64,000 nucleotides of DNA from Aquificales bacterium (GCA_027036735.1 JALWDU010000094.1:2326-66325), one strand, 5' to 3'. Counted from the first letter of the stretch, positions 11,309 to 58,446 are shown. The notes: generated by a model from the letters alone, not told the origin. Translations and numbers: made by a program.

Positions 11309-12561
11309 AGGGATTAAAGGAAAAACTGATAACCCTTAAAGAACATGAATGCATTGAAATAGATACGCAACAGTTAGATGTTTTGAGAGGTTTAGGAATA
11401 AATTTTAAAGAACCTAATTATGATGAGATAGAAAAGTTTCAATTTTTAGGTCTCTTTTTAAGGTTTGACCCTCCCAATTTTAAACTTTGCGCCCATTACT
11501 TTGTTGGTGCTTCTTGGCTAATAGAGAAGGAAATCCCCATAAGGGTTTACCCAAAGGAAAGAAATAACAAAAAACCGGATTATTTAAAAATCTTCTTAAC
11601 CCTATTGGAGGACGAGGAAATTGTTAAAAGTTCCCACTTTCAAAAGGCGTTTAAGGTTGATATAGAAAAGCCTCCTTTAAGGGTGGAGAAAGAAGACCTG
11701 TCGTTTCTTTATTTGGTGTTTTTAGCGTATTTGACACTATTAAAAGATTTGGTAAGGAAGGGGTTGAAAAAAGGGTTCCTCTGCGAGGAGCAGGTATTAA
11801 ATTCCCGTATAAAGGGCAAGTTAAACATAAAATTGACCAATCAAAGATTTTTTTATAAAGGAAAGTATACACAAACGGTGTGTAAATTTGACACGTTAAC
11901 GAAAGACATCTTGGAAAACCGTATTTTAAAAGCCGCTCTCCTACAAGTGGAAAAATTTTTAAAAAATTCCCCCTTTAAAGGAGGAAAGATCGATTCCCTT
12001 TTGGGTTATTTAAAAAATGCTTTTTTGGGAGTTTCAACAGTCAAAATTTCCGCAAAGGATTTTCTAAAGGTCAAGGAATCTCCGTTCTTTCCCGAATACA
12101 GAAATGCTCTAAGGCTTGCTCAAATAATCCTAAAAAATTTGGGAAGCGACCCTTTTGCAAGTTTTAAAGGGGGAGTGTATATAACCCCCTATGCGGTTAA
12201 TATGCCTAAGCTTTTTGAACTTTACGTTTGGAAGAAACTTAGAGAAGAATATGAACTTTCAAAGATTTTGTATCAACATTCATTTACAGGTGGGGATATT
12301 CCAGATTTTGTAATCAAAGGAGAAAACCTAATATTAGATGCGAAGTATAAGTATTTAGACCCAGGGAAGGTAAGCAAAGAAGATATAGGTCAATTGGCGA
12401 GATATGGAAGAAATATAAATATTAGACGCTCGGTGAGTGGTAACGAAGATAAGGAACCTATGCTGTGTATAGTCTATCCTACTTTCGAAGTAAGTAAAGA
12501 AAAGCCTATAGGAGATGAATATTTCAACTTTTATATGAGAGCCTTACAACTTCCCATTTAG
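11260..12561 (+). CDS. mcrC: McrC-like nuclease subunit
   Basis: Lies immediately downstream of and overlapping the mcrB-like gene. C-terminal PD-(D/E)xK-like core IPDFVI...LILDAKYKYL. The start codon is uncertain. Confidence 0.7.
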   Translation: MENLNGGGCSEQIKILEGLKEKLITLKEHECIEIDTQQLDVLRGLGINFKEPNYDEIEKFQFLGLFLRFDPPNFKLCAHYFVGASWLIEKEIPIRVYPKERNNKKPDYLKIFLTLLEDEEIVKSSHFQKAFKVDIEKPPLRVEKEDLSFLYLVFLAYLTLLKDLVRKGLKKGFLCEEQVLNSRIKGKLNIKLTNQRFFYKGKYTQTVCKFDTLTKDILENRILKAALLQVEKFLKNSPFKGGKIDSLLGYLKNAFLGVSTVKISAKDFLKVKESPFFPEYRNALRLAQIILKNLGSDPFASFKGGVYITPYAVNMPKLFELYVWKKLREEYELSKILYQHSFTGGDIPDFVIKGENLILDAKYKYLDPGKVSKEDIGQLARYGRNINIRRSVSGNEDKEPMLCIVYPTFEVSKEKPIGDEYFNFYMRALQLPI

Positions 12562-17970: not shown

Positions 17971-18342
17971 TTAAACTTTTGCAGTTTTAGGAAATTCCAC
18001 CACAATTTTTTGATAGGGGATAGAAACCTTCCATCCCTTATCCGTTTTTTCCATTTCAACAATTCCCAAGTCATGGAGAATTTGAATATCTTTCCAAACA
18101 TTGGAATAATCCCTCTTTAGGTGTTTGGCAAGTTCCCTTATAGATTTAAACTCCTTATGTTGAAGAGCCTCTATTATTTCCCATCGGGCGGGGGTTAAGG
18201 TCTTAAACATTCTTCCTACTGAAGTGAAGATTAAAACGTTTTCCACGGGAATATCTTCTCCTTTGTAAACCTTTTTTAGAACATTTAAAAGATTTTTAGA
18301 AACCCTTTGAGGTTCTTCGACCTTTATCGTTAAAATTTTCAT
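17971..18342 (-). CDS. winged-helix DNA-binding protein, putative antitoxin (TumA/HVO_A0114-like)
   Basis: 123 aa. wHTH-like SIRELAKHLKRDYSNVWKDIQILHDLGIV. 4-nt ATGA overlap with the upstream ORF. AT-rich. Confidence 0.55.
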   Translation of the reverse strand: MKILTIKVEEPQRVSKNLLNVLKKVYKGEDIPVENVLIFTSVGRMFKTLTPARWEIIEALQHKEFKSIRELAKHLKRDYSNVWKDIQILHDLGIVEMEKTDKGWKVSIPYQKIVVEFPKTAKV

Positions 18343-18725
18343 ATTTCGACCTCCCCGATAGCTTCTAAAAGTTCTAAAACCTCTTCAAAAGGTTGACCGT
18401 CTTCCTTTAATACATCTATTAATTCCTCCAAAAAGTCCTGCAATAGCCGTTTAGGGTTTTGAAAGTTATAGGGTAGTCTTTTCCCCTTTCTGTGTTTGTG
18501 TGCCCCACCGTGGGCGTTGTCGTAACGAAAATAATTCTGTTTGAGTTTTTTATCTTCTATCCAAAATGGTATATAGGCAAGGCTGTAATAATACCCGCAA
18601 GGTCTATCTTTATCCGCCTCTATACGATAGATTTTTAGAACTATTACTCCGTTTTCAATGACTATCCGTTCGTTGAATAGTTCCTCCGCTTTAGGCATAG
18701 ACTTTTTGTTTTCATACATTCCCAA
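18339..18725 (-). CDS. DUF6516/TumE-like putative toxin
   Basis: 128 aa. The motif FRYDNAHGGAHKHRKG resembles the His-rich signature I recall for the DUF6516 family. Translationally coupled to the wHTH gene. Confidence 0.5.
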   Translation of the reverse strand: MGMYENKKSMPKAEELFNERIVIENGVIVLKIYRIEADKDRPCGYYYSLAYIPFWIEDKKLKQNYFRYDNAHGGAHKHRKGKRLPYNFQNPKRLLQDFLEELIDVLKEDGQPFEEVLELLEAIGEVEI

Positions 18726-19216: not shown

Positions 19217-20611
19217 TTAGTCCCTAAAGAGGGAAACCGCTTCCTTTAAGACCGCATCGAGGAGTTTTTCGTCCGGTATTTCGGCGTAAATTCTTAGAAG
19301 CGGTTCGGTTCCCGAGGGTCTAACGAGTAGCCAACCGTCGTTTTCGAAAACGAGCTTCAGCCCGTCTATCGTTTTGACCTCCCTAACCTTGAGACCGCCG
19401 ACCGCCGAAGGCGGGTTTTTCTTTAATTCCTCGAGTTTCTCCTTCTCCCGCGGGTCTACCGGGAGGTCTACACGCCTGTAATAAGCCTCACCGAAGCGTT
19501 TAAAGAGCTCTTCGATTACCCCCGAAGGGGTTTTGCCCTTTAGGAAGAAAAGTTCTAGCAGGTAGAGCGCCGAGAGCAAGCCGTCCCGCTCGGGGGTGAA
19601 GTGGGGAAATCCGTAGCCGCCGCTCTCCTCCCCTCCGAAAATTACGTCGTCCCTTTCGAGGATAACCCTGTTGATGTTCTTAAACCCTACGGGGGTCTCT
19701 ATTATTTCAACCCCGAAGTGTTTCGCTATTCTATCCGCCAAATAGGTGGTCGAAACCGTTTTGACGACCGCCCCGCGCAAACCCTTGTTTTCGAGCAGGT
19801 GCAGGAGCAAAAGCGCGTAAATTAGCTGGCTGTTTACGAAATTTCCTTTTTCGTCCACCAGAGCGACGCGGTCGCCGTCGCCGTCGTTCATTATCCCGCA
19901 AAAGGCGTTCTCCGCCCTCACCTTTTCCATTAGAGTTTTTGCGTTCTTTTCAACCGGTTCGGGGGCTCTGCCGCCAAAGAGCGGGTCGCGGTAGGCGTGG
20001 ATTTCCACCACCTGGGCTTTCGTTCCCTCCAAAGCCCTCCTAAGGTATCCTATGGAGGAGCCGAACATCGGGTCGTGGACTATTTTGAAATCTTCCTCCT
20101 TAAAGAGGTCTAAGTTAATTTGCTCCTTCACGGCGGATATGTATTCTTCGGTGTAATCCTCCTCCGAGAGGTTTCCCAGTTCGAACTCCGGTTCCCTTTC
20201 GGGGGAAACCTTTCCTATCAGGGATTCCACCTTTTGGACGAATTCGGGTGTGGCGCTCCCCCCGAAGGAGTCCTTTATCTTATACCCGTTGTAGGTGGGC
20301 GGGTTGTGGCTCGCCGTTATCATTACCCCGTTGTCGAAGCCCTTATACCTCACCGCCCAGGATACGAGGGGAGTCGAAACCGCCTTCGGTGAGAGGTTCA
20401 CGTCGAACCCTTCGGATACGAAGAGGGTAGCCGCTTCGCGGGCGAAATTTTCCGACATAAAGCGGTTGTCGTAACCTATAAAGACCTTTCCTTTACCTTC
20501 CCGCCTCAAGACCTCGGCGTGTGCCAGAACCACCTTTTTGAGGTTTTCAAAGGTAAAATCGCGGGCTATTACAGCCCTCCATCCGTCGGTGCCAAACTTT
20601 ATAACAGCCAT
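19217..20611 (-). CDS. phosphoglucomutase/phosphomannomutase (alpha-D-phosphohexomutase)
   Basis: Active-site loop ITASHNPPTYNGYK, metal loop NDGDGDR, GGEESGG. The ATG at 20611 overlaps the relE-like stop by 1 nt. Confidence 0.9.
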   Translation of the reverse strand: MAVIKFGTDGWRAVIARDFTFENLKKVVLAHAEVLRREGKGKVFIGYDNRFMSENFAREAATLFVSEGFDVNLSPKAVSTPLVSWAVRYKGFDNGVMITASHNPPTYNGYKIKDSFGGSATPEFVQKVESLIGKVSPEREPEFELGNLSEEDYTEEYISAVKEQINLDLFKEEDFKIVHDPMFGSSIGYLRRALEGTKAQVVEIHAYRDPLFGGRAPEPVEKNAKTLMEKVRAENAFCGIMNDGDGDRVALVDEKGNFVNSQLIYALLLLHLLENKGLRGAVVKTVSTTYLADRIAKHFGVEIIETPVGFKNINRVILERDDVIFGGEESGGYGFPHFTPERDGLLSALYLLELFFLKGKTPSGVIEELFKRFGEAYYRRVDLPVDPREKEKLEELKKNPPSAVGGLKVREVKTIDGLKLVFENDGWLLVRPSGTEPLLRIYAEIPDEKLLDAVLKEAVSLFRD

Positions 20612-20874
20612 CAATAAATTTCCCCCCTATGTCCAATCCGAACGATTATGATAACTATTTGCTCCCTATCGAGGCGGTAAACAACCCTGTAGTTCCCCAC
20701 CCTCAAGCGGTATAGACCTTTGTATTCCCCCTTTAGGGGTTTGATATTGTTCTTTAACCTATTTGGGTCTTCGGCAAGGAGCTCCAGCTTTTCTTTAATA
20801 ATCCTTTGAACCGTCTTGTCCAGACTTTTGAACTCCTCGGCGGCTTCTTTCAGAAAGAGGAGTCTGTATTTCAT
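20611..20874 (-). CDS. RelE/ParE-family toxin
   Basis: 87 aa. The LYRLRVGNYRVVYRL...IVIIIVRIGHR pattern is typical of RelE/ParE. Overlaps the antitoxin gene by 4 nt. Confidence 0.8.
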   Translation of the reverse strand: MKYRLLFLKEAAEEFKSLDKTVQRIIKEKLELLAEDPNRLKNNIKPLKGEYKGLYRLRVGNYRVVYRLDREQIVIIIVRIGHRGEIY

Positions 20875-23080: not shown

Positions 23081-23091
23081 AATTGCAAAAA

Positions 23092-23137
23092 TTCCGCCAG
23101 AAAGCCCTTTGTTTTAGCTAAGGGATGAATGGCGGAA
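23092..23137. repeat. 46-nt imperfect palindrome at the left end of the TnpB element (copy 1)
   Basis: ttccgcca-N30-tggcggaa with an inner ccctt/aaggg stem. A reverse-complement copy lies at 57956-57997. Confidence 0.7.
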
Positions 23138-23182: not shown

Positions 23183-24430
23183 ATGCAAATAACCCGTTTC
23201 CACATAATAACTCAGAAAATCCCCACTAAATACTATCCACTCCTAAATGAGCTTCAGTTGGAAGCGGGTAAAATTTGGTCGGATAGCCTTAACCTTTTCT
23301 TTGAACTGTTTAAACAAACAGGAAAAGCCCCTAAAAAATCTCAAATCCAAAAGCTTGTTAAATCCTCCCTTTTGCATTCACAAACCACCCAAGCCATTCA
23401 GGATAGGCTCTTTGGAGCTTTAAAAAGCTACTTCAAAAACAAAAAGCAAAATCCTTCTGCTAAACCTCCAAAACCGAGAAAGTTTTATAACCTCATCTGG
23501 AAAAACCAAGCTATCCGCTATAAAAACGGAAAAATTCTTTTGCCTCTGTCAAGAAAAAGCGGAATAACTCTGTCTATACCGCTTAGAAAGAGGAAAAGGG
23601 AGTATTTAGAGGAATTGTTAAGCTCTAGGGCTAAGATAAGACAAGCGGAAATAGTTTTTAAAGGCTTTGAATACCGGTTAATTTTGCTGGTTAAGGAAAC
23701 GGTTGAGATAAGCCCTCCCGATAGAAATAAGGTTGTAGCTCTGGATTTGGGAGAAATTCACCCATTTGTAAGCTTTGACGGGGAAGAAGTTTTAATTTGG
23801 AACGGAAGATTATTAAGGAGTTATAAACAGCTAAGGTTAAAGCTTATAGCCTTGAAACAAAAGCTATTGGCAAGAAAACAAAAAGGAAGCAGAAGGTGGA
23901 AAAAGATTAAAAGAAGCTTAGACAGACAAATAGTGAAGGTAGGGAGGAAAATAGAGGACTTAGAACACAAGCTAACGAGAGCATTTGTTAAATACTGCAA
24001 AGCCAAAGGGATAGGAACGGTGGTAATAGGGAAGTTAAAAGGAATAAGGGAAAGGGCAAAATACGGCAAGAACGCCAATCAAAAAATCCACTTAATGTGG
24101 AGGTTTAATAAGCTATTGCAAAAGTTGGGATATAAATTAGAGAACGAGGGCATAGTGGTGGTGAAAGAAGATGAGAGCTACACCACCCAACTATGTCCTA
24201 AATGTGGAAATAGACATAAGCCCAAAAACAGAAACTATGTCTGTCCTGCATGTGGCTTTAGCTACCATAGGGACGGGGTAGGTGCGATAAATCTATTTAG
24301 GAGGTTTATGGAAAAAGTATCGGGGAGCTTTAATCTCCCCGTAGATGGACTGACACGCCCTCGGGGTGTGAAATACTCCCCGAGTAGCTCAGGGTGGGTT
24401 CTACCTACCCTGAGAAACCCCCTGCTTTAG
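23183..24430 (+). mobile_element. tnpB: IS200/IS605-family TnpB (OrfB) RNA-guided nuclease gene, no tnpA
   Basis: 415 aa. RuvC-like VVALDLGEIHP (D), VVKEDESYTTQ (E), YHRDGVGAINL (D). Zn finger CPKCG...CPACG. Confidence 0.85.
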
Positions 24431-32168: not shown

Positions 32169-33101
32169 ATGCGCATTTTGGTCACGGGCGGAGCCGGCTT
32201 TATAGGTTCAAACCTCGTGAGGAAACTCCAAAAGAGATTCCCCCAAGCGGATATAGTGGTGGTCGATAACTTCACCAGCGGGGATTTTAAAAATTTGATA
32301 GACTTCAAAGGGGAGTTTATTCCCGGCGATATTTCCGATAGGGGGTTTTGGGATTATTTGGCTTCCTCTTATAGTTTCGATGTGGTCTTCCACCAGGCGG
32401 CGATAACCGATACCACAGTCCTCGACCAGGAACTGATGACAAGGGTTAACACTCTGGGGTTTAAATACCTTCTCGATGTAGCCCTCGAGAGGTGGAACGC
32501 AAAGGTTGTTTACGCCTCTTCGGCGGCGGTCTACGGCAATTGCCCCGCCCCCATGAGGGAGGATGGCTGTTTGAAACCGGAAAACGTCTATGGATTTTCC
32601 AAACTGATGATGGATAGGCTTGCCGAAAGGTATCTAAAGCGCTTTCCCGAAGCCCGCATAGTGGGTCTTAGATACTTCAACGTCTACGGTCCCGGCGAAG
32701 CCCACAAGGGAAAATTTGCCAGTATGGTTTACCAGCTCGCCGTTAAGATGATAAGAGGCGAGCGTCCCCGTCTCTTTAAATGGGGCGAACAAAAGAGGGA
32801 TTTCGTCTACGTAAAGGATGTGGTGAAGGCAAACCTACTCGCCATGGAAAAGGACGTTTCCGGGGTGTTTAATGTAGGCTACGGAAAGGGTCGCTCTTTT
32901 AACGAACTCGTGGCTATTTTGAACAAAGTCCTCGGAACGAATTACGATATCGAATATTTCGACAACCCTTACGACTTTTACCAAAACTACACCGAGGCGG
33001 ATTTAACCAGAAGTTCCACCATTTTGGGATACAAACCCGAATGGTCTCTCGAAAGGGGGGTTGAGGATTACGTTAAAAACCATCTATTGGGAAATAAATA
33101 A
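32169..33101 (+). CDS. hldD: ADP-L-glycero-D-manno-heptose 6-epimerase
   Basis: GGAGFIGSN, YGFSK, GLRYFNVYGPGEAHKGKFASMVYQL as in HldD/RfaD. Confidence 0.85.
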   Translation: MRILVTGGAGFIGSNLVRKLQKRFPQADIVVVDNFTSGDFKNLIDFKGEFIPGDISDRGFWDYLASSYSFDVVFHQAAITDTTVLDQELMTRVNTLGFKYLLDVALERWNAKVVYASSAAVYGNCPAPMREDGCLKPENVYGFSKLMMDRLAERYLKRFPEARIVGLRYFNVYGPGEAHKGKFASMVYQLAVKMIRGERPRLFKWGEQKRDFVYVKDVVKANLLAMEKDVSGVFNVGYGKGRSFNELVAILNKVLGTNYDIEYFDNPYDFYQNYTEADLTRSSTILGYKPEWSLERGVEDYVKNHLLGNK

Positions 33102-33228: not shown

Positions 33229-33901
33229 GTTCCAAACCCTTATGGAGATATGAATTGAAGTTTCATATCCTCCTTGAGGTTTTTTGTTTCCCGTTTTAAT
33301 CCTTTATGGGGATATAAAAATACTTAGCATCTAAAACCGAAAAACAGGTGCGTTTTAAGCCCCTATAGGGGCATAACAACTTTTGGAGGCAAATTTCTCT
33401 ATATCGTCAATATCGAGTTTCAATCCCTTCTAGGGACATAACAACAATCTTGGAAGATGATGGATTTACCCCCAACTATGTTGTTTCAATCCCTTATAGG
33501 AACATAACAACGTTCGTTGATATTGAAAATTCACCGCTGGGACGAAGTTTCAATCCCTTATAGGAACATAACAACAAAATCGTATTCTTAGAAGGACTCT
33601 GCTTTAGGGAGGGTTTCAATCCCTTCTAGGGACATAAAAACAAACTTCACCTACCACCCGCGGGACTGCTGTTGCTGTGTTTCAATCCCTTCTAGGGACA
33701 TAACAACCAAGGTTAAATTTAAAGAAAATGATTTAGAAAATTGTTTCAATCCCTTCTAGGGACATAACAACGAAATCAGGAAAAAGAAAATAATGTATCG
33801 AAAACAGAGTTTCAATCCCTTCTAGGGACATAAAAACTTCGAGGTTCGCCATATCCTTGGAATTATGGCTGTGTTTCAATCCCTTCTAGGGACATAAAAA
33901 C
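33229..33901 (-). CDS. placeholder
   Basis: placeholder. Confidence 0.
33229..33901 (-). CRISPR. CRISPR array: 8 conserved plus 3 decayed 29-nt repeats, 35-37-nt spacers, no adjacent cas genes
   Basis: Plus-strand repeat gtttcaatcccttctagggacataacaac at 33417, 33483, 33547, 33613, 33679, 33743, 33809 and 33873. Decayed copies at 33352 (5 mismatches), 33293 and 33229. The minus-strand reading ends GGGATTGAAAC and the decay is at the left end, so the leader is probably on the right (33902 onward). Confidence 0.93.
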
Positions 33902-34194
33902 CAAGATGAGGCCAATCTTATTAAGTTGCCAAGGAACCCAACCCTTACTTGGGTTTAAAGAATACCAAACCCACCTAAAGGAGTCAAGCAAAAATTGACT
34001 TTCTAAGTCAACCCTATATTGACATTAATTTCCTGGAGTGTACCCTTTCGTTGGAACTCTAAGACAAAACTCAATTCTGCAAAAAGTTTTTGTCAAATTT
34101 CAATCCTTAACTTGTCATTAAATCTTGAGTCTGACCTTATAAAGGTCAAAGTTATAAAATTTCTCCTCTCGCAATATCCCCGGGAGGGTTTTAA
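33902..34194. promoter_or_regulatory. AT-rich CRISPR leader / divergent nrdA promoter region with GTCAA/TTGAC palindromes
   Basis: GTCAA-N7-TTGAC at 33983-33999 and 34007-34023. Perfect TGACCTT-ata-AAGGTCA at 34132-34148, 47 nt upstream of the nrdA ATG. Confidence 0.4.
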
Positions 34195-37100
34195 ATGCTG
34201 TTTGAAGTCATAAAGAGGGACGGGCGCGTCGAGCCTTTCGATACGAAAAAGATAGAGAAGGTTATAAACGTCTGCGCCGAGGGGCTCAACATTGACCTGG
34301 AAAAGTTTTCCCAAAAGCTCGCGCTCTTTCTAAAACCTCGCATGACGACGCGGGAAATTCAGCACAACCTCATAACCGCCGCCATCTCCCTGATAGTCAC
34401 CGAGGAGAACAAGGAGGATTGGAGCAGGTTCGCCAACCGCCTCATTCTGGTCGATTTCAAAAAGGAGATGCGTGTCCGTCGGGAGCAGAAATACAACGCA
34501 AAGGTTACCCGTTACGGGTTTTTTGAAAATTTTGAGGACTTTTACAGGTTTTTAAACGAATACGTCCAAAAGGGGGTCTATTCGAAACTCTTCCTCGAAA
34601 TCCCCAAAGAGGTAATGGAGGAACTCTACTATGCCATTTTCGACAAGGATAACTTTTCCAACCCTTTGTGGAACAAAGCCAAACATATGCAAACGCAGAA
34701 GTTCATCCGCTCCTACCTTACGGAGGAAAACAACTTTCCCATAGAACTCCCGGAGGAGGTTTGGTTTCTCCAATCCCTTTTGGGGTTCCTGCCTTCGGTC
34801 AAAAACTACGGTAGGGACTGGGAGTATTACAAACAAAAGGTGCTGAAGCATTTCGAATACCTGTCGGAGTTTCTAATAATTCCCGCAACCCCGCAGATGT
34901 TAAACCTCCGCAGGGCTAGGGCAAATCTGTCTAGCTGCTTTATCCTCGATGTGAACGACAACACCGAGAGCATAGTCCACACCCAGAGCCAGATAGCCCA
35001 AATCTCGCGGAATGCGGGCGGTGTCGGTCTCTTCATAGGAAAACTACGCCCTTCGGGGAGTTGGATAAAGGGAAATAGGGGCAAAGCCAACAAGATAACC
35101 GATTGGGTCAAAATTTACGAGTCAACCGTCAACGCCTTCAACCAACAGGGTAAGCGTAAGGGTAGCATAACGGTTGCCCTTCCCGTTTGGCACAAAGATA
35201 TTTTGGACTTCCTCGAAGTTATAGACCTCGATATAGGGGAGATAACCAAAAAATCCCCCGACGTTTTCACCCAGGTGGTTATTCCCAACTTCTTCTTTAA
35301 GTTTGTAAACGAAAACCGCACCTTTTATCTGATAGACCACTACGAGATAACCCACATTTTGGGTAGAAAGGATTTAGACCTCTTAGAGGTATACGGCGAG
35401 GAAGCCGAGAGGAGATACGAGGAGATAGTCAACCTGATAGAGGAGGGTAAGGTTAAAAACTACAAGGCGGTAAACCCCCGAGAGGTCTTGAGAAAAATCT
35501 TCTACTACTGGGGTAGGAAGGGATTGCCTTACATCTTCTTTGAGGACAACGCCAATAAACCGTCGCCCTTTAAGGAGAAGATTTATTCGGCTAACCTTTG
35601 CGTGCATCCGAAAACGAAAATCCTGACCAAGGAGTACGGCTATGTGGAAATAGAGAAGGTTGCGGGTCAAATCCTCCACGTTTGGAATGGTAACGAGTGG
35701 AGCCTTTCCGCAATTTTCAAAACGGGCGAGAACTACAACAATTGGTATGAAATCGAATTTTCCAACGGTGAGAGGATTATTTGTACGGATTACCACAGGT
35801 GGTATGTAAAAAAAGACCCTAAAAAATACGGCAGGTCACCCACAGTGGTTAAGAGAACTTACCAACTGAAGGAGGGGGATATACTCGAAAAGTGGTCTCT
35901 TCCCCTTATAGAGGGCAGCGAAGAACTCCCATACGCGTACGAAAATGGGCTATTTTCTGCGGAGGGGACGGAATACGAAACATTTGATGTAATCTACCTA
36001 TACGACCGTAAAAGGAAATTAAAAGAGTTCTGCAGAGGTTTTTACAGAACTTACGAATATCCCAAAAACAAAATTTTAAAACTCTTTTACAAAAAGGGTG
36101 TGCTAAAACCCAAATTTTTTGTTCCCGACCACCGTTATACCGTTGAGAGCCGCATAAGGTGGTTGGAAGGGCTTTTCGACGGGGATGGAACCCTCGTAAG
36201 GAACGGAACCAACAAAAGCCTTCAGCTGGTTTCGGTCAATTACGAGTTCCTGTTAAAGGTTAAGAGAATGTTGGAAACCTTGGGGGTGAATACCAAAATA
36301 GTGGAGGGATACCCCGAAAGGGAAACGCTACTACCCGACCACAGAGGTGGGAAAAAACTTTATCGCTGCAAACCCTCGTGGAGGTTGTTGATACCCTCAT
36401 CCGAACTGGTGAAGTTGATAGACCTAGGTTTTTCCCCAAAAAGACTAAACGTTCGTATGGAAAAACTCCCCAACAGGAATGCCTCCCAATTCGTTCGGGT
36501 TAAATCGGTTAAAAAGTTGGAAAACTTCGTATGCGATAGCTATTGCTTCTTTGAACCCAAACTCAATAGGGGTGTTCTAAACGGTGTTTTAACGGGTAAT
36601 TGCGTCGAAAACTTTTCCCCCTTCCGCAACACCGACCCGAAAGACCTCTACTGTATCCCCGAAGAGGAGCTCGGATACATCCACACCTGCAATATAACGA
36701 ACGTAAACCTCCTAAAACTCTACGAGAAGGGTTATTTAAAAGAGACCGAGAGGTTGAAGGAATTTGTCTTCCACCTCTACGAGTATATGGATAACCTTAT
36801 CGACATCACCGACCTGCCGGTCAAAGAGAGCAAAAAGCATAACCGCCTCTTTAGAACGGTTACCGCCGGTTTTATGGGGCTCGCCGACCTCTTCGTTGCG
36901 AAATCGGTCGAAGACGGAAGGTATTACGGCTACCGCTACAGTTCGAGAAATGCCAATCCCGAAGATACCCTAAACCTTATAAGGGAAGTTTTCGGTAAAT
37001 TTTCTTTCCTCGCCGTTCTCGCCTCCACCGAGTTGGCGAAAGAGCGGGGTAAACCCCAAGGGTACGAAAAGACCAAATACCCCGATGGGGTCATTCTCGG

Positions 37101-37632
37101 AAGGTACGACCTAAAGAGGGAAAAAGATAGAGACCTCGTTAAGGACTTGATAGGAGAAAAGAACCTTAGGAGGTTGGAGGAAAATCTGTCCCTCTACGGG
37201 ATTAGGAATACGCTCCTCCTAAACTGTCCGCCCAACACCTCCACCTCCATACTCGCCGGCGTGAGCGCGGGGGTTATGCCGACCTTCTCCCTCACCCAGG
37301 TTGAAGACCAGCAAACCGGTCTGTTTGTCAATTTTGTTCCCCTATACCGCTACAAGTGGTTTTACGATACCTATACCAACTTTTCTTCCCTCTCCGACTA
37401 CGAAGACCTAACCGATATAGTCGCCGAAATTCAAAAATTTATCGACAGCGGAATTTCCTTCGAGATTACGGTAAATCACAACCACTTCGACACCGGGGAG
37501 AAGTTAACCACACTTTTCGCTCTTGTCCTCTCCGAGGCGAGGAAAAAGGGTATAAAAGCCCTCTACTATTGGAGGCATATACTCAAAGATAAAACCGTAG
37601 GGGTTGAGGAGTGCGAAAGTTGCGCCAATTAA
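34195..37632 (+). CDS. nrdA: class I ribonucleotide reductase alpha subunit, intein-containing
   Basis: N-terminal ATP-cone-like VIKRDGRVEPFD. The catalytic SANLC|VENF motif is split by a 334-aa intein. Followed by nrdB. Confidence 0.9.
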   Translation: MLFEVIKRDGRVEPFDTKKIEKVINVCAEGLNIDLEKFSQKLALFLKPRMTTREIQHNLITAAISLIVTEENKEDWSRFANRLILVDFKKEMRVRREQKYNAKVTRYGFFENFEDFYRFLNEYVQKGVYSKLFLEIPKEVMEELYYAIFDKDNFSNPLWNKAKHMQTQKFIRSYLTEENNFPIELPEEVWFLQSLLGFLPSVKNYGRDWEYYKQKVLKHFEYLSEFLIIPATPQMLNLRRARANLSSCFILDVNDNTESIVHTQSQIAQISRNAGGVGLFIGKLRPSGSWIKGNRGKANKITDWVKIYESTVNAFNQQGKRKGSITVALPVWHKDILDFLEVIDLDIGEITKKSPDVFTQVVIPNFFFKFVNENRTFYLIDHYEITHILGRKDLDLLEVYGEEAERRYEEIVNLIEEGKVKNYKAVNPREVLRKIFYYWGRKGLPYIFFEDNANKPSPFKEKIYSANLCVHPKTKILTKEYGYVEIEKVAGQILHVWNGNEWSLSAIFKTGENYNNWYEIEFSNGERIICTDYHRWYVKKDPKKYGRSPTVVKRTYQLKEGDILEKWSLPLIEGSEELPYAYENGLFSAEGTEYETFDVIYLYDRKRKLKEFCRGFYRTYEYPKNKILKLFYKKGVLKPKFFVPDHRYTVESRIRWLEGLFDGDGTLVRNGTNKSLQLVSVNYEFLLKVKRMLETLGVNTKIVEGYPERETLLPDHRGGKKLYRCKPSWRLLIPSSELVKLIDLGFSPKRLNVRMEKLPNRNASQFVRVKSVKKLENFVCDSYCFFEPKLNRGVLNGVLTGNCVENFSPFRNTDPKDLYCIPEEELGYIHTCNITNVNLLKLYEKGYLKETERLKEFVFHLYEYMDNLIDITDLPVKESKKHNRLFRTVTAGFMGLADLFVAKSVEDGRYYGYRYSSRNANPEDTLNLIREVFGKFSFLAVLASTELAKERGKPQGYEKTKYPDGVILGRYDLKREKDRDLVKDLIGEKNLRRLEENLSLYGIRNTLLLNCPPNTSTSILAGVSAGVMPTFSLTQVEDQQTGLFVNFVPLYRYKWFYDTYTNFSSLSDYEDLTDIVAEIQKFIDSGISFEITVNHNHFDTGEKLTTLFALVLSEARKKGIKALYYWRHILKDKTVGVEECESCAN
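35599..36600 (+). mobile_element. intein in NrdA (LAGLIDADG homing-endonuclease type), aa 469-802
   Basis: Starts CVHPKTKIL, block B CTDYH, LAGLIDADG-like LEGLFDGDGTL, ends VLTGN followed by +1 Cys. The exteins rejoin to SANL-CVENF. Confidence 0.85.
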
Positions 37633-47991: not shown

Positions 47992-50900
47992 TTAGAGGTT
48001 TTCCCCTCCCTCGAGGATTTCCACCAATTTACCCAATTTGGTCTTTAGCAGGTTTAGGTTGTTGGCGTTGGGCAAAACCCAATACTCCTTTCCGAGTTCT
48101 ATTTCGTATAAGTCCCCTTCCCCCGTAAGGAGTTTTATATAGGTTGGGGTACCCTCGTAGGGGTCGGAAAGTTTTTTCAAAAACTTTCGGAGTTTTTCTA
48201 AAGTTTCGTCCCTAACGTGGGTTTCCTTGAGTTTTATAACCACTTTTAGTGTTTTTTCTACATCTTCGGGCGTTAACACCCTCCGGACGATGAGTTTTTT
48301 GCGCTCCGTTTCGAAATCGGTGGTGAGGTCTCCCTCAATCACCACAACTTTATCCTCTCCGAGTTTGTCTTTAACAACTTCATAAACATCGGGGAAAACT
48401 ACGCACTCGACAATACCGGTTTTGTCGATTAGGTTGAATACGGCCATATATTTCCCCGCGCGGGTTCTCTTCTCCTCAAAGTCGACCACCACGCCGGGGA
48501 TTTTCAAATCGTTCGCACTTTCAACCTCTTCGAGGTCTTCAATTCTCGTTCTATACCTCTCCAAGAGGTGGGGATATTTGTCGAGAGGGTGACCGCTGAT
48601 GTAGAAACCCAAAAGTTCCCTCTCCCTCCTCAAGCGTTCGAGAAAATCCTCCACACTTTCGGTGTTTACGTTTCCATTTTTTCCTTTTGGGGTTCCGAAA
48701 AGGGAATTCTGTCCCACCGCGAGGGAGGGTTTACCCTCCGCCTGAACCTTTTTGAGGAGTTCCTCCCTACTCTCACCGGTAAAGTCAAACGCCCCCGCTT
48801 GAATGAGGGCTTCGATAACCTTTTTATTCACCTTACGCTTGTCAACCTTCCTAACGAAGTCGGCAAGGGATTTGAAACTTCCGAATTTCTTCTTAGCCTC
48901 TTGGATAGCTTTAGCCGCCTCCTCCCCGACACCCTTAATCTTCGCCAGACCATACCTTATATAGGTCTTTCCGTTTTTCTCCTCCAACGAAAAGTGGATG
49001 TCGGATTTGTTAATATCCGGCGGTAGGAGTTCGAAACCGAAGAGCTTTGCATCCTTTATAAGGGATATGAATTTGTTTTCGTTCTTTTCCGTCGAGAGTT
49101 TTACCGCAAAAAAGACACCCGTGTAGTGGGTTTTGAAAAATGCGGTCCAATAGGAGATATAGGCGTAGGCTGTCGAGTGGGATTTATTGAAGGAATAGGA
49201 TGCGAATTTCTCTATGCTAGCCCAAAGCTCCTCTATCTTTTTGCGGTCGAAGCCCCTCTTAACCGCCCCCTCGATGAACTTTTCGCGCATTTTTTGGATA
49301 AGGTCGGAGTTGTGGACTATCACACAATTGGCTATAAAGTTGGAATTTTCCACCGTAAGGTCATAAGTTTCTTCCACTCCAATAGGTTCTATGTTCTCTA
49401 TGTAATCCCAAAATATGTCGCCGTTACAGAGGTTTAAAAGTTCCTCATCCTCGAGGACAGCGGCGAATTTTTGTAACCTGTTGGGCGTAATATTTAGGGA
49501 GGTATTTATTCCACCATATTCACCGACCTTTGCCGAGAGCTTAGCCAAAGTCAATTCCTTTTCCTCCGCTTTTCGCTGAATTTTTAACCATACCTCTTTT
49601 GGTAGTGTTTCTTTTTTGAAATTGGTTGTTTTTTGTTTCAACTTATCGATTAACCCCTTAAGTTTTTTCTTCTTTCTTCCCACGACATGGTTTTGAATTA
49701 GCTTCAAAAACTTAAGTAGGTTTTCCCTACCCCTAACCTCAACGCGGTAATAAGTTCTTTTTTGACCTTTATAGGTTACTTTTTTCTCCTTTACCGCCGC
49801 GTTAATGCCGAATCTCCTTAGTAAAAGCAAAATTTGCAAAGCCAAGCGGTGCGATTTGGTAAGAAACTCGGAATACTCGTAGTTTTTGGTTATTACAAAG
49901 CTTCCATCGGTAGTCCACAAAGCGCCCAAAAAGGCAGAAATAACTTCCTTTGGAGCGGACATTATTTGATTGGGAATAAATTTATCCTCCGCTTTTTGGT
50001 TGTAGAGTCCCAACGAACGCAAAAAGTTTTTAATATCCCTTCTTTGGGAGGTTTTATTTTTTTGATAGATGTAAACCGCTTTAACATTTCGCGGATTAGT
50101 GTAAACCTTTATCTCGCTTTGGGGAAATTCTCGGCTTACCAACTCTATAAAGTCCTTAATCACTTCTTCGTCGGAGGAATAGAACATAACACTTTTTAGG
50201 TTTCCGTCCCCCAAAAGGTATCCAACTATTTTTGCCCTTTCGGGGGAAGTTGTTGAATGTTCCTTCACATTTATAGTTAAAGGCGTGGCTATCCTTTCCC
50301 CTTTTATGAGTTTCTTTAAAGGTTTCCATCCGTTTACGGTTAAAAATAGGTGAGAAGCCGTTGCCTTAATAGTTCCCGAATAGCGGAGTTTCACCCGATA
50401 GACCAAATCCTTCCCATTTCTGTGGACCTCTACAATTTTTGAGGGCTCGCTGTGGAAGTTTTTATTTACGGAAGCAACCTTTAGAGGAGAGTTTATTAAG
50501 TTAACCGTAAAGGTTTTCTTACAATCTTTGCAGTATACGGAAACTTTATTGTTTCTTTTTCCATTAATGTATGTATTTTCGGAATTGCAATAGCGGCATT
50601 TTACTTTGCCCCTGTTTCTATATTCGTAGTTCTCTATTAACGTTAAAAGTTCGACTGTGGAACCGTCGGCAAGGGTTACCAACGTATCGGCGGTTAAGCA
50701 ACGCTTCTTTCCTATTCCTTTCCTCAGGGTATCCGCCTCACCCGGCGTGAAACCGGATAGCACTTGGGACATCTTCATTATCTGCTCTTGATAGATACAG
50801 TTATGGCAGACGATATTGTTTCCTATAAAGTTGTGGTACTTTTCGATTTCAAGGTCGTAAACGTGCTCTTTTCCTACAAAAGTAATTCCTTTTACCGGGA

Positions 50901-53900
50901 TAAAGGAAACTTTTCCCCTTTCGGGAACAGCCACCAAATCTTTACCCACTTGGAGGTCTTTCAATTCCTTCCAACCTTCGGGGGTCAAAAATTTGTGGTC
51001 TTTTGTAGCCTTTATTTTTGCACCGTTGGAAAGAACGAGTTCGTAAACCTCTTTAACCCCGTTGTCGAAAACTTTGGAAATTTTACCCTTTACGGGTTTA
51101 TTCGTCTCCGTATCCACCGAAAGGACTTCCAAACCCGTTAACTTCCTCTCGACGATTTCCCTCAATTTCAAACTCCTACCGTCGTAGAGGGTTATTTCCG
51201 TATCCCCCGTAAGACAGAGTCCGTAAGTCTCCTTCAAGATAGGTTCGAGTTGGGGAAATTCGTATTCGATGGGCTCCTCGCCGTGCTTTCTCCTTACAAA
51301 GCTATCGACTAGACCCGATTTGAGGGGTCCCGGGCGGTAAAGCGCCAAAACCGCGATTAGGTCGTCGAAGCGGTCGGGTTTTAACCTAACGAGGAGCTGC
51401 TGCATACCCCTACTTTCGAGCTGGAATACCCCCGTAGTCCTTCCGCTCTTTAAGAGGTCGTAAACCTTCGGGTCTTCGTAGTTAAGGGAGAGTAAATCTA
51501 TATCTTCCCCGTAGAGGTCTTTAACCATCTTCTTCATGTGGTCTAACTCTGTGAGGGTCTTAAGTCCGAGAAAGTCCATCTTGAGGAGTCCTATCTCTTC
51601 AAGGACTCCCATGTCGTATTGGGTTGCAACGATAAACTTCTCCTGTTTTGTTTCCTTATCCTTTTCCTTCCTCGCGTATAGGGGAACGAGCTCTATAAGG
51701 GGTTTGGGGGCTATAACCACACCCGCCGCGTGGAAACCGGTATGTCTGGTAAGCCCGTCGAGTTTTTTCGCTATATCGACAGCCCTTTTTAGGGAGGGGT
51801 CGGAATTTACCATTTGACGGAACTTAATAACGGCGTCCTCTATGTCCGGTCTCTCCCCATATTTTTCCTTCAGTTGGTCTATACTCCAATCGGTCATCTC
51901 CTCCAGGGAGAGTTGGGAACCTTGGGTTTCCCCTTGGGGGATAAGTTTGGCGAGCCTATCCGCCTTCTCGAGGGGAATGCCGAGCGCACGGCAGACGTCC
52001 CTGATAACCGATTTGGACTTCAGGACATTGTAGGTAATAATCTGGCTGACGTTGTCCCTTCCGTATTTGCGCCTAACGTAATCTATAACGTCGTCCCTCC
52101 TATCCTGACAGAAATCGACGTCTATGTCGGGCATAGACACCCTTTCGGGGTTTAGAAAACGCTCAAAGAGCAGGTCGTGCTTTATAGGGTCTATATCGGT
52201 AATCCCGAGGGCGTAGGCGACCAGCGAACCGCCGGCGGAGTTGTGTATCGCCACCGTCGAGGTGGTATAGGAGTGGTCGAATGGAACGGTAATGTCGTAA
52301 ACCTCACCCTTATAGGGGACTTTTTCAACACCCCTAACCTTCACGTAGATAAACCTTTCATCGACAAAGAAGGAATCGTTTCGGAAAAACTTTTGACTGG
52401 GCAACTTAATGGGAAATTCTTCAAAGGTTTCGTTCCACCTGAGGAGCTGTTTTCCCGAAAGTTTAACCTTGTATTCGGTATTCCAATTTTCCCTTTTCCT
52501 TTCCCCCTTTATTACGCTCGCCCAAAAGCCGAAGCGTGCCAAAAGCAGGCGAAGCTGATAAGCCAAAGTCTGTGAAGTAGTGGAGTAGATAATAGACGCC
52601 GTTTTGGAGCTTCTGCCGTCGTAGCCGTCCCCCCTAAAGAGGTAGGCGATTAGCGTTTTCACATATTCGTCCTCCCCGTGAAGAACGACCTCGGTCGGTA
52701 TCCTCTTGTTTTTAGCCCTATCCCCGCAAAGGTTTCTCAAAAATTGGGCTACTATTTTGGTCTTAAATTCAACCTTTAAAGCCCTTCTGGTGGAGGACTT
52801 AAAAATTTTTCCCTCTACGTTGAAAACCTCTTTAAACAATCTCAAGAGTTCTTCGGCGTATTTCCGCTCCCACTCGGCGAAACCGAAACCTACAACCCCA
52901 CCGTGTTCGTCAATCTTTGTATAACCCTCGGAGATGAAATAACCGAGAATTTTCGCCAATTTGTGGTCTAACTTTACAAATCTCGGAACCTTTGCGGTTT
53001 GGAGTCTATTGCTTCCCCTCTCGTAGTATAGGGAATTCTTGTCCCACCTTAGGGCTTTACCCTTTTCCACATACCTTAGGAGGTCGAAAACCACACCCTT
53101 TTGGGTCGATTTTTGCCTCGGGAAGACCAAAAAGTCGTCCTTTTTCAACTCCTCTGCGGGTATCCACCTTAACTTGTACTTCTCGTAAGGTTTATCTTTG
53201 CAATACCTATTGCAGGTAGGTTTACAAACCGTTTCCTTTACGGATTTAACCTTGCACTTTTCCGTTTGCAGTGCTAAAACTTTGTGGTCTCCCGTAAGGG
53301 TTAGTTTTTCCCCTCCGATTTCGACCTCTACGAGTTCCTCATTAACTTCATACCTATAGGTGTTTAAAACGGGTAAAACGGCACCCCTGTGGGTTAAAAC
53401 GAAATCCCCGACCGAAACCTCCTTTATGGGTTTGATTTCACCGCTTCCGAGCATTACCGGTGTATCGGGCAAAACGCAACCCCTTCCGGGACCCACCGGG
53501 ATATCGTTCTTTTTAGCCCAGTTGATAAAGTCCTGAACTATGAGGAAATAGCCGGGGAAACCCATTTGGGAGATAACGTCGAGTTCGTATTCCAAACGTT
53601 TCCAATAGGTTTCGTTGTCCTTAGCCTGTCCCCTCTCTATGCGTTTTTTTAGACCCTCCTTTGCCAGTTTACGGAAGTAACTTTCGAGGTCTTCCCCTTC
53701 GGGGACTTCGTAAACCGGCATTTTGTATTCTTTGTTTTCGAAATACTCCAATCGGTCGGATACCTTTTCGGCCACCTCAAGGGTGTTTAAGAGAGCCTTT
53801 TCCCAACCCTCAAAGCGGTTTTCGAATTTCCTCCAAACCTCTTCGGGTGATGCGAAGTGTAGTTCCAACTGCTGGAGTTTTTGCCCGTGAGGGGTTTGGA

Positions 53901-54624
53901 TTAACTCCTGATAGGTGGTTTTCATCTGGAGGGCGGTCAGTATCATATGGGCGACCTTGTCCTCGGGCTTGAGGTAGTGAACGTCGCAGGTGGCTATTAG
54001 CTTAAGGTCGTGCTTTTTGGCGAGTTCTACAAGGATGCGGTTTGCAGTTATCTGCTCCTCTATATCGTGGGGTTGAAGTTCCACATATAGGTCATCTTTT
54101 CCAAATATCTCGACCAACTTTAGGAGCCACTTTTCAGCCTCTCTCTCCTCACCTCGGGAGGCGTAATATGTGGGTAACCCTTTGAGGCAAGCCGTTAAAC
54201 ATATAAGACCCTCTCGGTGTTCGTTTAAAACCTCCAAATCTATCCTCGGTTTGTAGTGAAAGCCCTCCAAAAAGCCTATTGAGGAGAGTTTCATAAGGTT
54301 TTTCAGCCCAACGTCGTTTTTCGCTATAAGCACTATGTGGTGGTTTTGTGTGTCGGTGTAGTTGTCCTCCTTGCCCTTACCCCTCTTGTCGAAGCGGGAA
54401 CCCTTTGTTATGTAAGCCTCCATTCCGATAATCGGCTTTAGACCCTTGTCCTTCAGGGCGTGGTAAAACTTGTAAGACCCGAACAGGTTCCCGTGGTCGG
54501 TCATCGCGACCGCCTTGTAGCCTAGCCTTTCCGCATACTCGGGAAGTTCCTTTATCTTTATAGCCCCGTCGAGGAGCGAAAACTGTGTGTGCAGGTGGAG
54601 GTGAACGAATTCCCTTTTACCCAT
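47992..54624 (-). CDS. dnaE: DNA polymerase III alpha subunit interrupted by three inteins
   Basis: 2210 aa. PHP domain (FVHLHLHTQFSLLDG), GPGRG|SAGGSLVAYALGIT, FNKSHSTAYA, OB fold. After removing 413+139+464 aa the extein is 1194 aa. Confidence 0.95.
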   Translation of the reverse strand: MGKREFVHLHLHTQFSLLDGAIKIKELPEYAERLGYKAVAMTDHGNLFGSYKFYHALKDKGLKPIIGMEAYITKGSRFDKRGKGKEDNYTDTQNHHIVLIAKNDVGLKNLMKLSSIGFLEGFHYKPRIDLEVLNEHREGLICLTACLKGLPTYYASRGEEREAEKWLLKLVEIFGKDDLYVELQPHDIEEQITANRILVELAKKHDLKLIATCDVHYLKPEDKVAHMILTALQMKTTYQELIQTPHGQKLQQLELHFASPEEVWRKFENRFEGWEKALLNTLEVAEKVSDRLEYFENKEYKMPVYEVPEGEDLESYFRKLAKEGLKKRIERGQAKDNETYWKRLEYELDVISQMGFPGYFLIVQDFINWAKKNDIPVGPGRGCVLPDTPVMLGSGEIKPIKEVSVGDFVLTHRGAVLPVLNTYRYEVNEELVEVEIGGEKLTLTGDHKVLALQTEKCKVKSVKETVCKPTCNRYCKDKPYEKYKLRWIPAEELKKDDFLVFPRQKSTQKGVVFDLLRYVEKGKALRWDKNSLYYERGSNRLQTAKVPRFVKLDHKLAKILGYFISEGYTKIDEHGGVVGFGFAEWERKYAEELLRLFKEVFNVEGKIFKSSTRRALKVEFKTKIVAQFLRNLCGDRAKNKRIPTEVVLHGEDEYVKTLIAYLFRGDGYDGRSSKTASIIYSTTSQTLAYQLRLLLARFGFWASVIKGERKRENWNTEYKVKLSGKQLLRWNETFEEFPIKLPSQKFFRNDSFFVDERFIYVKVRGVEKVPYKGEVYDITVPFDHSYTTSTVAIHNSAGGSLVAYALGITDIDPIKHDLLFERFLNPERVSMPDIDVDFCQDRRDDVIDYVRRKYGRDNVSQIITYNVLKSKSVIRDVCRALGIPLEKADRLAKLIPQGETQGSQLSLEEMTDWSIDQLKEKYGERPDIEDAVIKFRQMVNSDPSLKRAVDIAKKLDGLTRHTGFHAAGVVIAPKPLIELVPLYARKEKDKETKQEKFIVATQYDMGVLEEIGLLKMDFLGLKTLTELDHMKKMVKDLYGEDIDLLSLNYEDPKVYDLLKSGRTTGVFQLESRGMQQLLVRLKPDRFDDLIAVLALYRPGPLKSGLVDSFVRRKHGEEPIEYEFPQLEPILKETYGLCLTGDTEITLYDGRSLKLREIVERKLTGLEVLSVDTETNKPVKGKISKVFDNGVKEVYELVLSNGAKIKATKDHKFLTPEGWKELKDLQVGKDLVAVPERGKVSFIPVKGITFVGKEHVYDLEIEKYHNFIGNNIVCHNCIYQEQIMKMSQVLSGFTPGEADTLRKGIGKKRCLTADTLVTLADGSTVELLTLIENYEYRNRGKVKCRYCNSENTYINGKRNNKVSVYCKDCKKTFTVNLINSPLKVASVNKNFHSEPSKIVEVHRNGKDLVYRVKLRYSGTIKATASHLFLTVNGWKPLKKLIKGERIATPLTINVKEHSTTSPERAKIVGYLLGDGNLKSVMFYSSDEEVIKDFIELVSREFPQSEIKVYTNPRNVKAVYIYQKNKTSQRRDIKNFLRSLGLYNQKAEDKFIPNQIMSAPKEVISAFLGALWTTDGSFVITKNYEYSEFLTKSHRLALQILLLLRRFGINAAVKEKKVTYKGQKRTYYRVEVRGRENLLKFLKLIQNHVVGRKKKKLKGLIDKLKQKTTNFKKETLPKEVWLKIQRKAEEKELTLAKLSAKVGEYGGINTSLNITPNRLQKFAAVLEDEELLNLCNGDIFWDYIENIEPIGVEETYDLTVENSNFIANCVIVHNSDLIQKMREKFIEGAVKRGFDRKKIEELWASIEKFASYSFNKSHSTAYAYISYWTAFFKTHYTGVFFAVKLSTEKNENKFISLIKDAKLFGFELLPPDINKSDIHFSLEEKNGKTYIRYGLAKIKGVGEEAAKAIQEAKKKFGSFKSLADFVRKVDKRKVNKKVIEALIQAGAFDFTGESREELLKKVQAEGKPSLAVGQNSLFGTPKGKNGNVNTESVEDFLERLRRERELLGFYISGHPLDKYPHLLERYRTRIEDLEEVESANDLKIPGVVVDFEEKRTRAGKYMAVFNLIDKTGIVECVVFPDVYEVVKDKLGEDKVVVIEGDLTTDFETERKKLIVRRVLTPEDVEKTLKVVIKLKETHVRDETLEKLRKFLKKLSDPYEGTPTYIKLLTGEGDLYEIELGKEYWVLPNANNLNLLKTKLGKLVEILEGGENL
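49309..50700 (-). mobile_element. DnaE intein 3 (aa 1309-1772, LAGLIDADG endonuclease plus CxxC..CxxC insert)
   Basis: CLTADTLVTL..., block B TASHLF, IVGYLLGDGNL and LGALWTTDGSF, ends VIVHN|S. Splits GIGKKR|SDLIQK. Confidence 0.9.
50800..51216 (-). mobile_element. DnaE intein 2 (aa 1137-1275, mini-intein)
   Basis: CLTGDTEITL..., block B TKDHKF, ends IVCHN|C. Splits ETYGL|CIYQEQ. 139 aa with no endonuclease domain. Confidence 0.9.
52240..53478 (-). mobile_element. DnaE intein 1 (aa 383-795, LAGLIDADG endonuclease-containing)
   Basis: CVLPDTPVML..., block B TGDHKV, LAGLIDADG-like ILGYFISEGY and LIAYLFRGDGY, ends VAIHN|S. Splits GPGRG|SAGGS. Boundary codons verified on DNA. Confidence 0.9.
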
Positions 54625-54742
54625 CGGCGGAATTTAAAAATTAGCAAAACCATTTATGGGTTTTAATCGGGTGGAAAAGCCATTAATGTGGGTAAAGGAG
54701 AACAAATTACCTTTTAAAGGAGGTTAAATATTTTATACACCA

Positions 54743-55019
54743 ATGAAAGATAAAATCCTCTGCTCCCGCAAGGGGAAATTTTTGTTTGTGATAATTCCCG
54801 ATAAACCCGAAATAGGAGCCTATGCCTGGAAAATCGATACCGAAACGGGGGAAAATTTACGAATACGCCGACGAAAGCGAAGAGAGGTATAGCGAACTAC
54901 AGGGGACGGTAGAAATCCACAAGGAACTTTGTCGGGAAGTTTGGAGAGTCGATGAAACCTCTTGGAGGGAATGTTTCGAAGAGGAACTCAAACTCTTAAA
55001 GGAAATAGGTTTAGTTTAA
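54743..55019 (+). pseudogene. small ORF split by a +1 frameshift at a G5A4 tract
   Basis: ORF a 54743-54892 (MKDKILCSRKGKFLFVIIPDKPEIGAYAWKIDTETG...) and ORF b 54822-55019 fuse into one ~91-aa reading frame if one base of gggggaaaa (54847-54855) is removed. Confidence 0.3.
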
Positions 55020-55375: not shown

Positions 55376-55407
55376 GTTTTTCCTATCCCGCTTTGGGAAT
55401 TTGAAAG
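55376..55407 (+). repeat. CRISPR-repeat-like solitary unit
   Basis: gtttttcctaTCCCgctttGGGAatTTGAAAg compared with the array repeat in its minus-strand reading GTTTTTATGTCCCTAGAAGGGATTGAAAC. They share the 5' GTTTTT, the TCCC/GGGA stem and the TTGAAA tail. Confidence 0.4.
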
Positions 55408-58400: not shown

Positions 58401-58446
58401 AAGAAACATATGGAATTTTGGATTATCAACATTAAATTCCCTACAT

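Follow-up and report, generated by a model that had tools for sequence, protein, structure and literature searches.

CRISPR arrays that are dispersed over a genome in many copies and share a common leader have long been known in thermophiles, among them Methanocaldococcus jannaschii, Pyrococcus furiosus and Aquifex. Namely, M. jannaschii carries dispersed arrays that comprise long-repeat plus short-repeat units, and P. furiosus has seven arrays with one repeat and an 8-nt AUUGAAAG tag; in organisms such as the latter, repeats ending in ATTGAAAC/G are common to type I and type III complexes. The array analyzed here lies in a stretch of 64,000 nt of DNA from an Aquificales bacterium (hereafter, the window), and it has much in common with these multi-array genomes. 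In particular, arrays of its family occupy many housekeeping sites, with the same repeat, the same leader of approximately 250 nt and cas genes elsewhere, and a single MAG holds ten of them. It differs in that the host is a bacterium and in that its repeat and leader are, as far as tested, unrelated to those of the two archaeal genera.

Another described counterpart is the type I-B system of Aquificota (Hydrogenobacter, Persephonella, Sulfurihydrogenibium), with which the window array shares the 29-nt repeat, the short GC hairpin, the 3' ATTGAAAC and the spacers of 35-37 nt. What is more, the cas genes that accompany this repeat and leader in relatives score above the cutoff of every type I-B model. 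There are two differences: the window is without cas genes of this system, the membership of its array being by homology of repeat and leader only, and the cas locus of the relatives is split, with an array and a tnpB gene between the cas3-4-1-2 and the cas6/cas8b-7-5 blocks. True orphan arrays are alike in having no cas operon within 30 kb on either side; however, the window array has an intact leader and intact repeats, turnover at its leader end and cognate cas genes in the same assembly, which is unexpected for a stranded array. Finally, the window differs from type III systems in that cas10, csm and cmr are absent from its ORFs of at least ~107 aa, as judged with Pfam. We propose, with a probability of roughly 0.78, that the window contains a distal array which is read from the minus strand, has its own leader, is one copy of a dispersed cassette and is served in trans by type I-B cas genes. 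The array itself consists of eight intact repeats, eight non-fossil spacers, a decayed trailer of three repeats and a leader of ~255 nt, and, judging by homology, a clade of Aquificales from deep-sea vents has the cassette of leader plus array in many intergenic places that are unrelated to one another.

The array and its decayed trailer

The array sits where a preceding reading of the DNA, made without database searches (the sequence-only reading), had placed it. On its left is hldD, encoding ADP-glyceromanno-heptose 6-epimerase (32169..33101, plus strand; TIGR02197, 352 bits against a cutoff of 275), and on its right is nrdA with a LAGLIDADG intein (34195..37632, plus strand; Pfam Ribonuc_red_lgC, LAGLIDADG_3 and ATP-cone; TIGR02506, 337 bits), followed by nrdB. 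The feature is a genuine CRISPR array. A pattern search with up to 3 mismatches finds the 29-mer GTTTCAATCCCTTCTAGGGACATAACAAC exactly eight times, always on the plus strand (starts at 33417, 33483, 33547, 33613, 33679, 33743, 33809 and 33873), the expectation by chance from 100 shuffles being 0. The copies have at most two mismatches to the commonest allele, all differences being confined to three positions, they recur with a start-to-start period of 64-66 nt, and the seven spacers between them are unique, 35-37 nt long and of 17-57% GC. In other words, the interval 33417..33901 (minus strand; crRNA-sense repeat GTTGTTATGTCCCTAGAAGGGATTGAAAC) answers to the generic description of a CRISPR array, namely at least three near-identical direct repeats of 23-47 nt with unique spacers of similar length, and search, shuffles and spacing all bear out the eight repeats that had been read there.

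The repeats fall into three alleles, at exactly the positions listed previously: one ends in AACAAC (33417, 33679, 33743), one in AAAAAC (33613, 33809, 33873) and one in TTATAGGAACATAACAAC (33483, 33547). There is nothing special to the window array in this, as the same polymorphisms are common to arrays across the whole repeat family, including those linked to cas genes. The TCCCT/AGGGA stem, which had also been pointed out, is predicted to form a UCCCU/AGGGA hairpin of 5-6 bp at -6.6 kcal/mol (z = -2.1), the 3' base of which abuts the 8-nt ATTGAAAC at the repeat end. In two of the window's repeats the allele forms a weaker hairpin (-3.7 vs -6.6 kcal/mol), and this, like the shortness of the array, we count against our main reading. 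At the gathering threshold, Rfam yields no match in the whole 64-kb window. When an E-value threshold is used, the best-scoring family for 8/8 repeats is CRISPR-DR2 (RF01315), aligned over the full model (1-30) with 24.8-31 bits, which is below the gathering score of 37 and does not amount to membership by the Rfam criterion.

Does the array extend beyond these eight copies? To the right of 33901, a local alignment scan finds no repeat-like segment above chance. A candidate at approximately 33935 is in phase and by eye matches 15/24 positions of the repeat core, but its score stays below what chance produces, and chance level is also all that TTTCAATCC (34098) attains; we reject a further repeat here as unsupported, although both segments are conserved parts of the leader. 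To the left, on the other hand, the three increasingly degenerate repeats of the sequence-only reading are confirmed by a position weight matrix (PWM), by phase and by conservation in a relative. The first (33352..33380, minus strand) agrees at 24/29 positions, with 28.7 bits and 71% identity in the repeat family, the second (33293..33321, minus strand) at 22/29 with 21.4 bits, and the third, terminal and most decayed one (33229..33257, minus strand) at 18/29 positions of the consensus. The matrix, built from the eight intact copies and run over the whole 64 kb, picks out only the first two beyond the intact copies themselves. The repeat at 33229 is weak if taken alone, because 22 other places in 62.9 kb have a local alignment score as high as its own (22). 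Its phase of 64 nt and its strand do fit the array, however, and all three degenerate repeats are conserved jointly in a relative.

The relative in question is represented by contig JYMV01036277 (L016), on which synteny is preserved and the purH and hldD proteins are 98.4% and 97.5% identical to those of the window. The two share the junction between hldD and the array, including the fossil part with its three repeats and two spacers: the 35-nt spacer at 33258..33292 (minus strand) is identical at 26/27 aligned bases to L016 10117-10143, and the 30-nt spacer at 33322..33351 (minus strand) at 27/29 bases to 10181-10209. Homology ends at the right edge of the 33352 repeat, the boundary between the fossil and the live parts of the array. 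Past it, only one spacer, of unrelated sequence, and one intact repeat separate the fossil part of L016 from its leader, and the window has eight spacers unrelated to L016, the oldest of which (33381..33416, minus strand, 36 nt) is wholly different from the L016 spacer in the same position. Since the trailer is common to the two and the leader end differs, the trailer is ancestral. In this single comparison, spacer variation between relatives is thus concentrated at the leader end, and the leader-proximal part has turned over since the two lineages split, as is characteristic of a polarised gain or loss of spacers.

The leader and its candidate promoter

The ~255 nt to the right of the array (33902..34156, minus strand) have homologues in the leaders of more than 15 arrays, with 75-96% identity. 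These homologues (L001-L018, L021, L023, L025 and L026) stem from related vent metagenomes and MAGs; namely, when one genome per species was scanned for exact matches to the repeat pattern, 12 loci were returned, 10 of which belong to the single Aquificales MAG JALVTI01, and a scan of metagenomes added 6 more. Judging by its name, JALVTI01 comes from the series of MAGs from deep-sea vent deposits by Zhou et al. 2022 (PMC9793634). Its arrays mostly have housekeeping genes on both sides (icd/acn, metE/ahcY, uvrD/gatA, an opp permease, a tRNA methyltransferase), and the setting of the window array is hence the norm in the clade. Two loci, L006 and L010 (JALVUY01), have an Aquificales repeat and leader at approximately 1.3-1.4x coverage in a MAG bin of Methanocaldococcaceae and are probably misbinned. 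In nearly all related loci, about 250 nt homologous to window positions 33873-34150 directly follow the terminal repeat, with 75-90% identity in general and 95.8% in the L016 fragment, and it is for this reason that we take 33902-34156 to be the leader. The homology extends to all ten JALVTI01 arrays and to arrays in five further sources, always on the same side, and degenerate repeats are always found at the leader-distal end; the left flank shows no conservation among arrays. A leader on one side and degenerate terminal repeats on the other is what one expects of a CRISPR array, and the leader that had been placed at 33902 onward on the basis of decay polarity and repeat tag is thus upheld by homology and by decay at the opposite end. 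It should also be noted that the L016 leader fragment, at 95.8% identity, compares with 85-92% for the neighbouring coding DNA.

Within the leader, a promoter scan together with an alignment of 16 leaders points to a candidate sigma-70-type promoter for pre-crRNA (33959..33987, minus strand) that matches the consensus. It combines a -35 element TTGACT (33987-33982), a spacer of 17 nt and an extended -10 element TGgTATTCT ending at 33959, and its predicted start is approximately 50 nt upstream of the first repeat. In the motif TTGAC-17-TGnTATnnT on the minus strand, TTGAC is invariant in 16/16 aligned leaders, as are the T-A-T and the final T of the -10 element, and the preceding TGn is kept in 14/16. 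In the scan of the region as such, there are 5 consensus matches where 3.2 are expected, and that the promoter is no more than such a match counts against our main reading.

At its distal edge, the leader contains a conserved inverted repeat, GACCTT-TAT-AAGGTC (34133..34147; alignment columns 9-23), which is possibly a protein-binding site. The same stretch overlaps a promoter-like sequence on the plus strand, CTGACC-18-TAAAAT (34131-34160), that points at nrdA. Given this site, and a distance of only 39 nt from the leader to the nrdA start codon, the cassette may contain the promoter of nrdA. We also considered the leader as a structured RNA, and RNAalifold on the 16 leaders gave a covariation contribution of only -0.66 kcal/mol with 3 weakly compensated pairs; we reject this reading, and the leader is consequently conserved as DNA.

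Type I-B genes in relatives and in the same assembly

Which cas genes could serve such an array? On one MAG contig of a relative (L012/L023), cas3-cas4-cas1b-cas2 are followed by leader and array, three unknown ORFs, cas6, tnpB, cas8b, cas7 and cas5. By the curated cutoffs of NCBIfam, its Cas1b scores 428 bits against 304 (TIGR03641), Cas6 124 against 59 (TIGR01877), Cas8b 217 against 157 (TIGR02556), Cas7/Csh2 293 against 172 (TIGR02590) and Cas5b 128 against 97 (TIGR02592). Signature genes of type I-B accompany arrays with the same repeat completely in this locus and partially in L021, L026 and L027, every retrieved cas-adjacent array of the repeat family adjoins type I-B genes, and the nearest named Cas1b homologues are those of Aquificota, at 58-61% identity. 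Judging from this linkage, the window array most probably belongs to a type I-B multi-array system. The repeat had earlier been assigned to the Cas6-processed class of types I and III, and it is the type I part of that assignment that is borne out, the linked set in relatives being a complete type I-B one with Cas6. The tnpB gene between cas6 and cas8b (L023 6998-8362) is of the IS200/605 kind, and in a sister sample (L024 2910-4684) tnpA and tnpB of IS200/605 directly follow cas3, so that cas loci in this clade do get disrupted.

In the window, scans with Pfam and NCBIfam of the larger ORFs, taken as likely genes (at least ~107 aa), reveal no intact cas gene or cas operon, and tblastn with Cas3, Cas4 and Cas1b of the relatives finds no homologue there. 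The sequence-only reading had likewise seen no Cas ORF within about 20 kb and a Csx1-like gene 22 kb away, and both statements stand. Its further claim that this gene is the sole CRISPR-associated candidate does not, because a cas1 pseudogene fragment is present as well. The fragment, from the N-terminal part of the gene (~55271-55478, plus strand), matches Pfam Cas_Cas1 with an E-value of 1.2e-3 as a single ORF, and after a hand-made frameshift repair with 3.6e-6 and 26.8 bits against a gathering score of 22.3, over profile positions 29-90 of 283. It lies in an ORF-poor gap of 1.4 kb (54625-56000) that separates dnaE from the Csx1-like gene, fragment and gene being 21-22 kb from the array. 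It bears no relation to the Cas1 that belongs to the type I-B loci of relatives and suggests a trace of a second, decayed cas locus.

The array had been called an orphan, and this holds within the window and probably fails beyond it. Namely, the Csx1-like protein of the window is found in identical form on an NCBI contig of 76.1 kb and in the ENA assembly ERZ23491132 (sample SAMN10217879), in which one contig (L019) is 99.9% identical to window positions 54042-64000. The same assembly contains a contig (L026) with a leader, four repeats, a small ORF, cas3, cas4 and cas1, the last being cut by the contig end. Its leader is 87% identical to that of the window, two of its four repeats are identical to the window's main allele, and its Cas3 is identical at 785/785 positions to a protein on an NCBI contig of 80.8 kb. 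Look-ups of exact proteins gave no match for hldD and none for P0127 of the 80.8-kb contig, and there is therefore no direct tie of the window to that contig. Because the assembly that holds the window also holds a matching cas contig, the array is probably an orphan locally only. The simplest reading is that the organism has its cognate type I-B locus elsewhere in the same genome and that the array is a distal one; the rest of the genome probably does include cas genes, the support being circumstantial. Distance as such would be no obstacle: arrays with identical repeats are reported to gain spacers about equally fast, be they near the cas locus or far from it (PMC12814883).

Could the array nonetheless be a true orphan, that is, a non-functional remnant whose cognate cas genes were lost and which decays slowly from the hldD side? 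The 64 kb without a cas operon would fit such a history, as would the cas1 fragment beside the Csx1-like gene if taken as a sign of cas decay in this genome, the insertion sequence that interrupts the cas locus in the sister sample, and the array's mere eight spacers, mixed repeat alleles and 0 protospacer matches. However, the eight repeats vary at only three positions, and arrays linked to cas genes also make use of each of the three alleles. The leader exceeds the neighbouring genes in conservation and retains its promoter motif, the content of the leader end is unlike that of the close relative, the cas1 fragment has no relation to the Cas1 of type I-B, and an intact cas3-cas4-cas1 contig with an identical repeat allele is present in the same assembly. 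We thus regard this explanation as unlikely.

A second alternative is that the cassette spreads as a unit to new intergenic sites, or that the organism lost its type I-B genes and keeps the array for some other use. At least 10 sites are occupied in one MAG, and there are two possible footprints, namely a duplicated unit of one repeat plus the first ~125 nt of the leader (L011 6879-7003 and 7106-7382) and a solitary repeat about 200 nt past the distal end of the leader (L003 6210-6238), both of which may also stem from recombination between leader-array cassettes. If the cassette does spread, the distal leader block with GACCTT-TAT-AAGGTC would be a recognition site for the copying machinery and not an element of transcription or integration. 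We find this improbable.

Finally, the main user of the array might be a type III effector, in which case the Csx1-like protein, of CARF/HEPN type, would be its accessory nuclease. That protein (56000-57748, minus strand, 582 aa) is encoded by an intact gene and matches TIGR01897 with an E-value of 1e-10; its C-terminal RNFLAH is an R-X4-H motif of HEPN type, and the repeat ending is one that type I and type III complexes share. It has six homologues among 5.8 billion proteins, with 34-100% identity, all from metagenomes or MAGs (NCBI, JGI, ENA, Logan). Yet its match, at 41 bits, is far under the curated cutoff of 110, no cas10, csm or cmr was seen among the larger ORFs of the window or in any fetched locus, and cas-adjacent arrays of the family are, as said, all beside type I-B genes, so that we consider such a role highly improbable.

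Strand, proposed mechanism and genomic setting

That the array is probably read from the minus strand, as had been concluded from decay polarity and repeat tag, is supported by four lines of evidence. The candidate promoter and the decay at the leader-distal end have been described above. In addition, the order cas2, leader, repeats is found in four loci (L023, L021, L022 and L027), and in the direction of the cas genes the repeats of four cas-adjacent loci read GTT...ATTGAAAC (also GTT...GGGATTGAAAC), which corresponds to the minus strand in window coordinates. Lastly, 29/135 repeat copies have a changed stem base, and G.U pairing is kept only in the minus-strand RNA in 25 of these 29 copies (10 of 14 distinct variants), among them the window's TTATAGGAA allele, and only in the plus-strand RNA in the other 4. 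This asymmetry is suggestive only, given that the copies are not independent events and that a strand-biased C-to-T mutation could mimic it; double compensatory changes in the repeat hairpin number 0, and the signal is confined to one-sided G.U replacement. Transcription along the plus strand from the hldD side, with the conserved right block as a trailer, can appeal to sub-threshold CRISPR-DR2 matches on that strand (Rfam DR models not being reliably oriented) and to a hairpin equally stable on both strands, but it can practically be dismissed, as degenerate repeats lie at the hldD end in all arrays, the left flank is unconserved among arrays, the conserved block sits between cas2 and an array with repeats reading ...ATTGAAAC in the cas direction in four loci, and the stem variants disrupt the hairpin in plus-strand RNA.

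Returning to the distal array served in trans, one can outline how it would work. The leader promoter (-35 at 33987-33982, extended -10 ending at 33959) would drive a minus-strand pre-crRNA. Cas6 would then cleave every repeat of this transcript where the UCCCU/AGGGA hairpin has its 3' base, giving crRNAs with the 8-nt 5' handle AUUGAAAC. The sequence prerequisites for this processing are present, namely the 3' ATTGAAAC and a hairpin of 5-6 bp that ends at the predicted cut site. The crRNAs would presumably be loaded into a type I-B Cascade (Cas8b-Cas7-Cas5), which would recruit Cas3 for interference, and Cas1b-Cas2-Cas4 would insert new spacers at the leader-repeat junction 33901/33902, all of these proteins acting in trans from a locus outside the window.

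What the spacers are directed against is a separate matter. The central 22-mers of six spacers have 0 exact matches in IMG/VR, a blastn search with the array in collections of 50,697 phage and 72,556 plasmid records returns only chance matches to the AT-rich spacer, there are no self-targets in the window, and no spacer is common to other loci except the two fossil ones in L016. The lack of protospacers is uninformative, because viruses of vent Aquificales are poorly sampled and the IMG/VR scan was one for exact matches.

Taken by itself, the array is real but ordinary, one of many copies of a leader-plus-repeat cassette in vent Aquificales, and it has little significance beyond annotation: strand, leader, candidate promoter and a probable subtype, I-B, for an array of an uncultured vent Aquificales organism. 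Also, an array that seems orphaned when only 64 kb are in view is best interpreted as belonging to a multi-array system with many distal members. For gathering the arrays of this clade from vent metagenomes, the conserved leader is well suited as a probe, and the 8 live spacers, together with roughly a hundred in related loci, offer a means of connecting vent viruses with their Aquificales hosts, given better viromes.

The other genes of the window are ordinary chromosomal ones: ligA, gatB, purH, a pilus/secretion ATPase and platform, hemE, bamD, a multi-intein dnaE, trpA and lgt. A lone TnpB (23183-24430), with no tnpA beside it, was considered as a partner of the array and rejected; it lies at a distance of 9 kb, shows no relation to the TnpBs in the cas loci of the relatives and is without a link to the array. 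A 50-nt element occurs twice with 88% identity (23086-23135, plus strand, and 57956-58005, minus strand), approximately 50 nt upstream of tnpB and 210 nt upstream of the Csx1-like gene in the same relative orientation, and it may be an IS200/605 end or a MITE. The genome is rich in inteins, as dnaE (47992-54624, minus strand), encoding 2210 aa, contains three intein-splicing stretches and two LAGLIDADG domains in addition to the one LAGLIDADG intein of nrdA. Genes of defence or addiction are found at 9632-12561, 17971-18725 and 20611-20874, and they comprise a McrB-like AAA_5 protein with McrC, a TumE toxin with an HTH partner of the HVO_A0114 type, and a ParE toxin.
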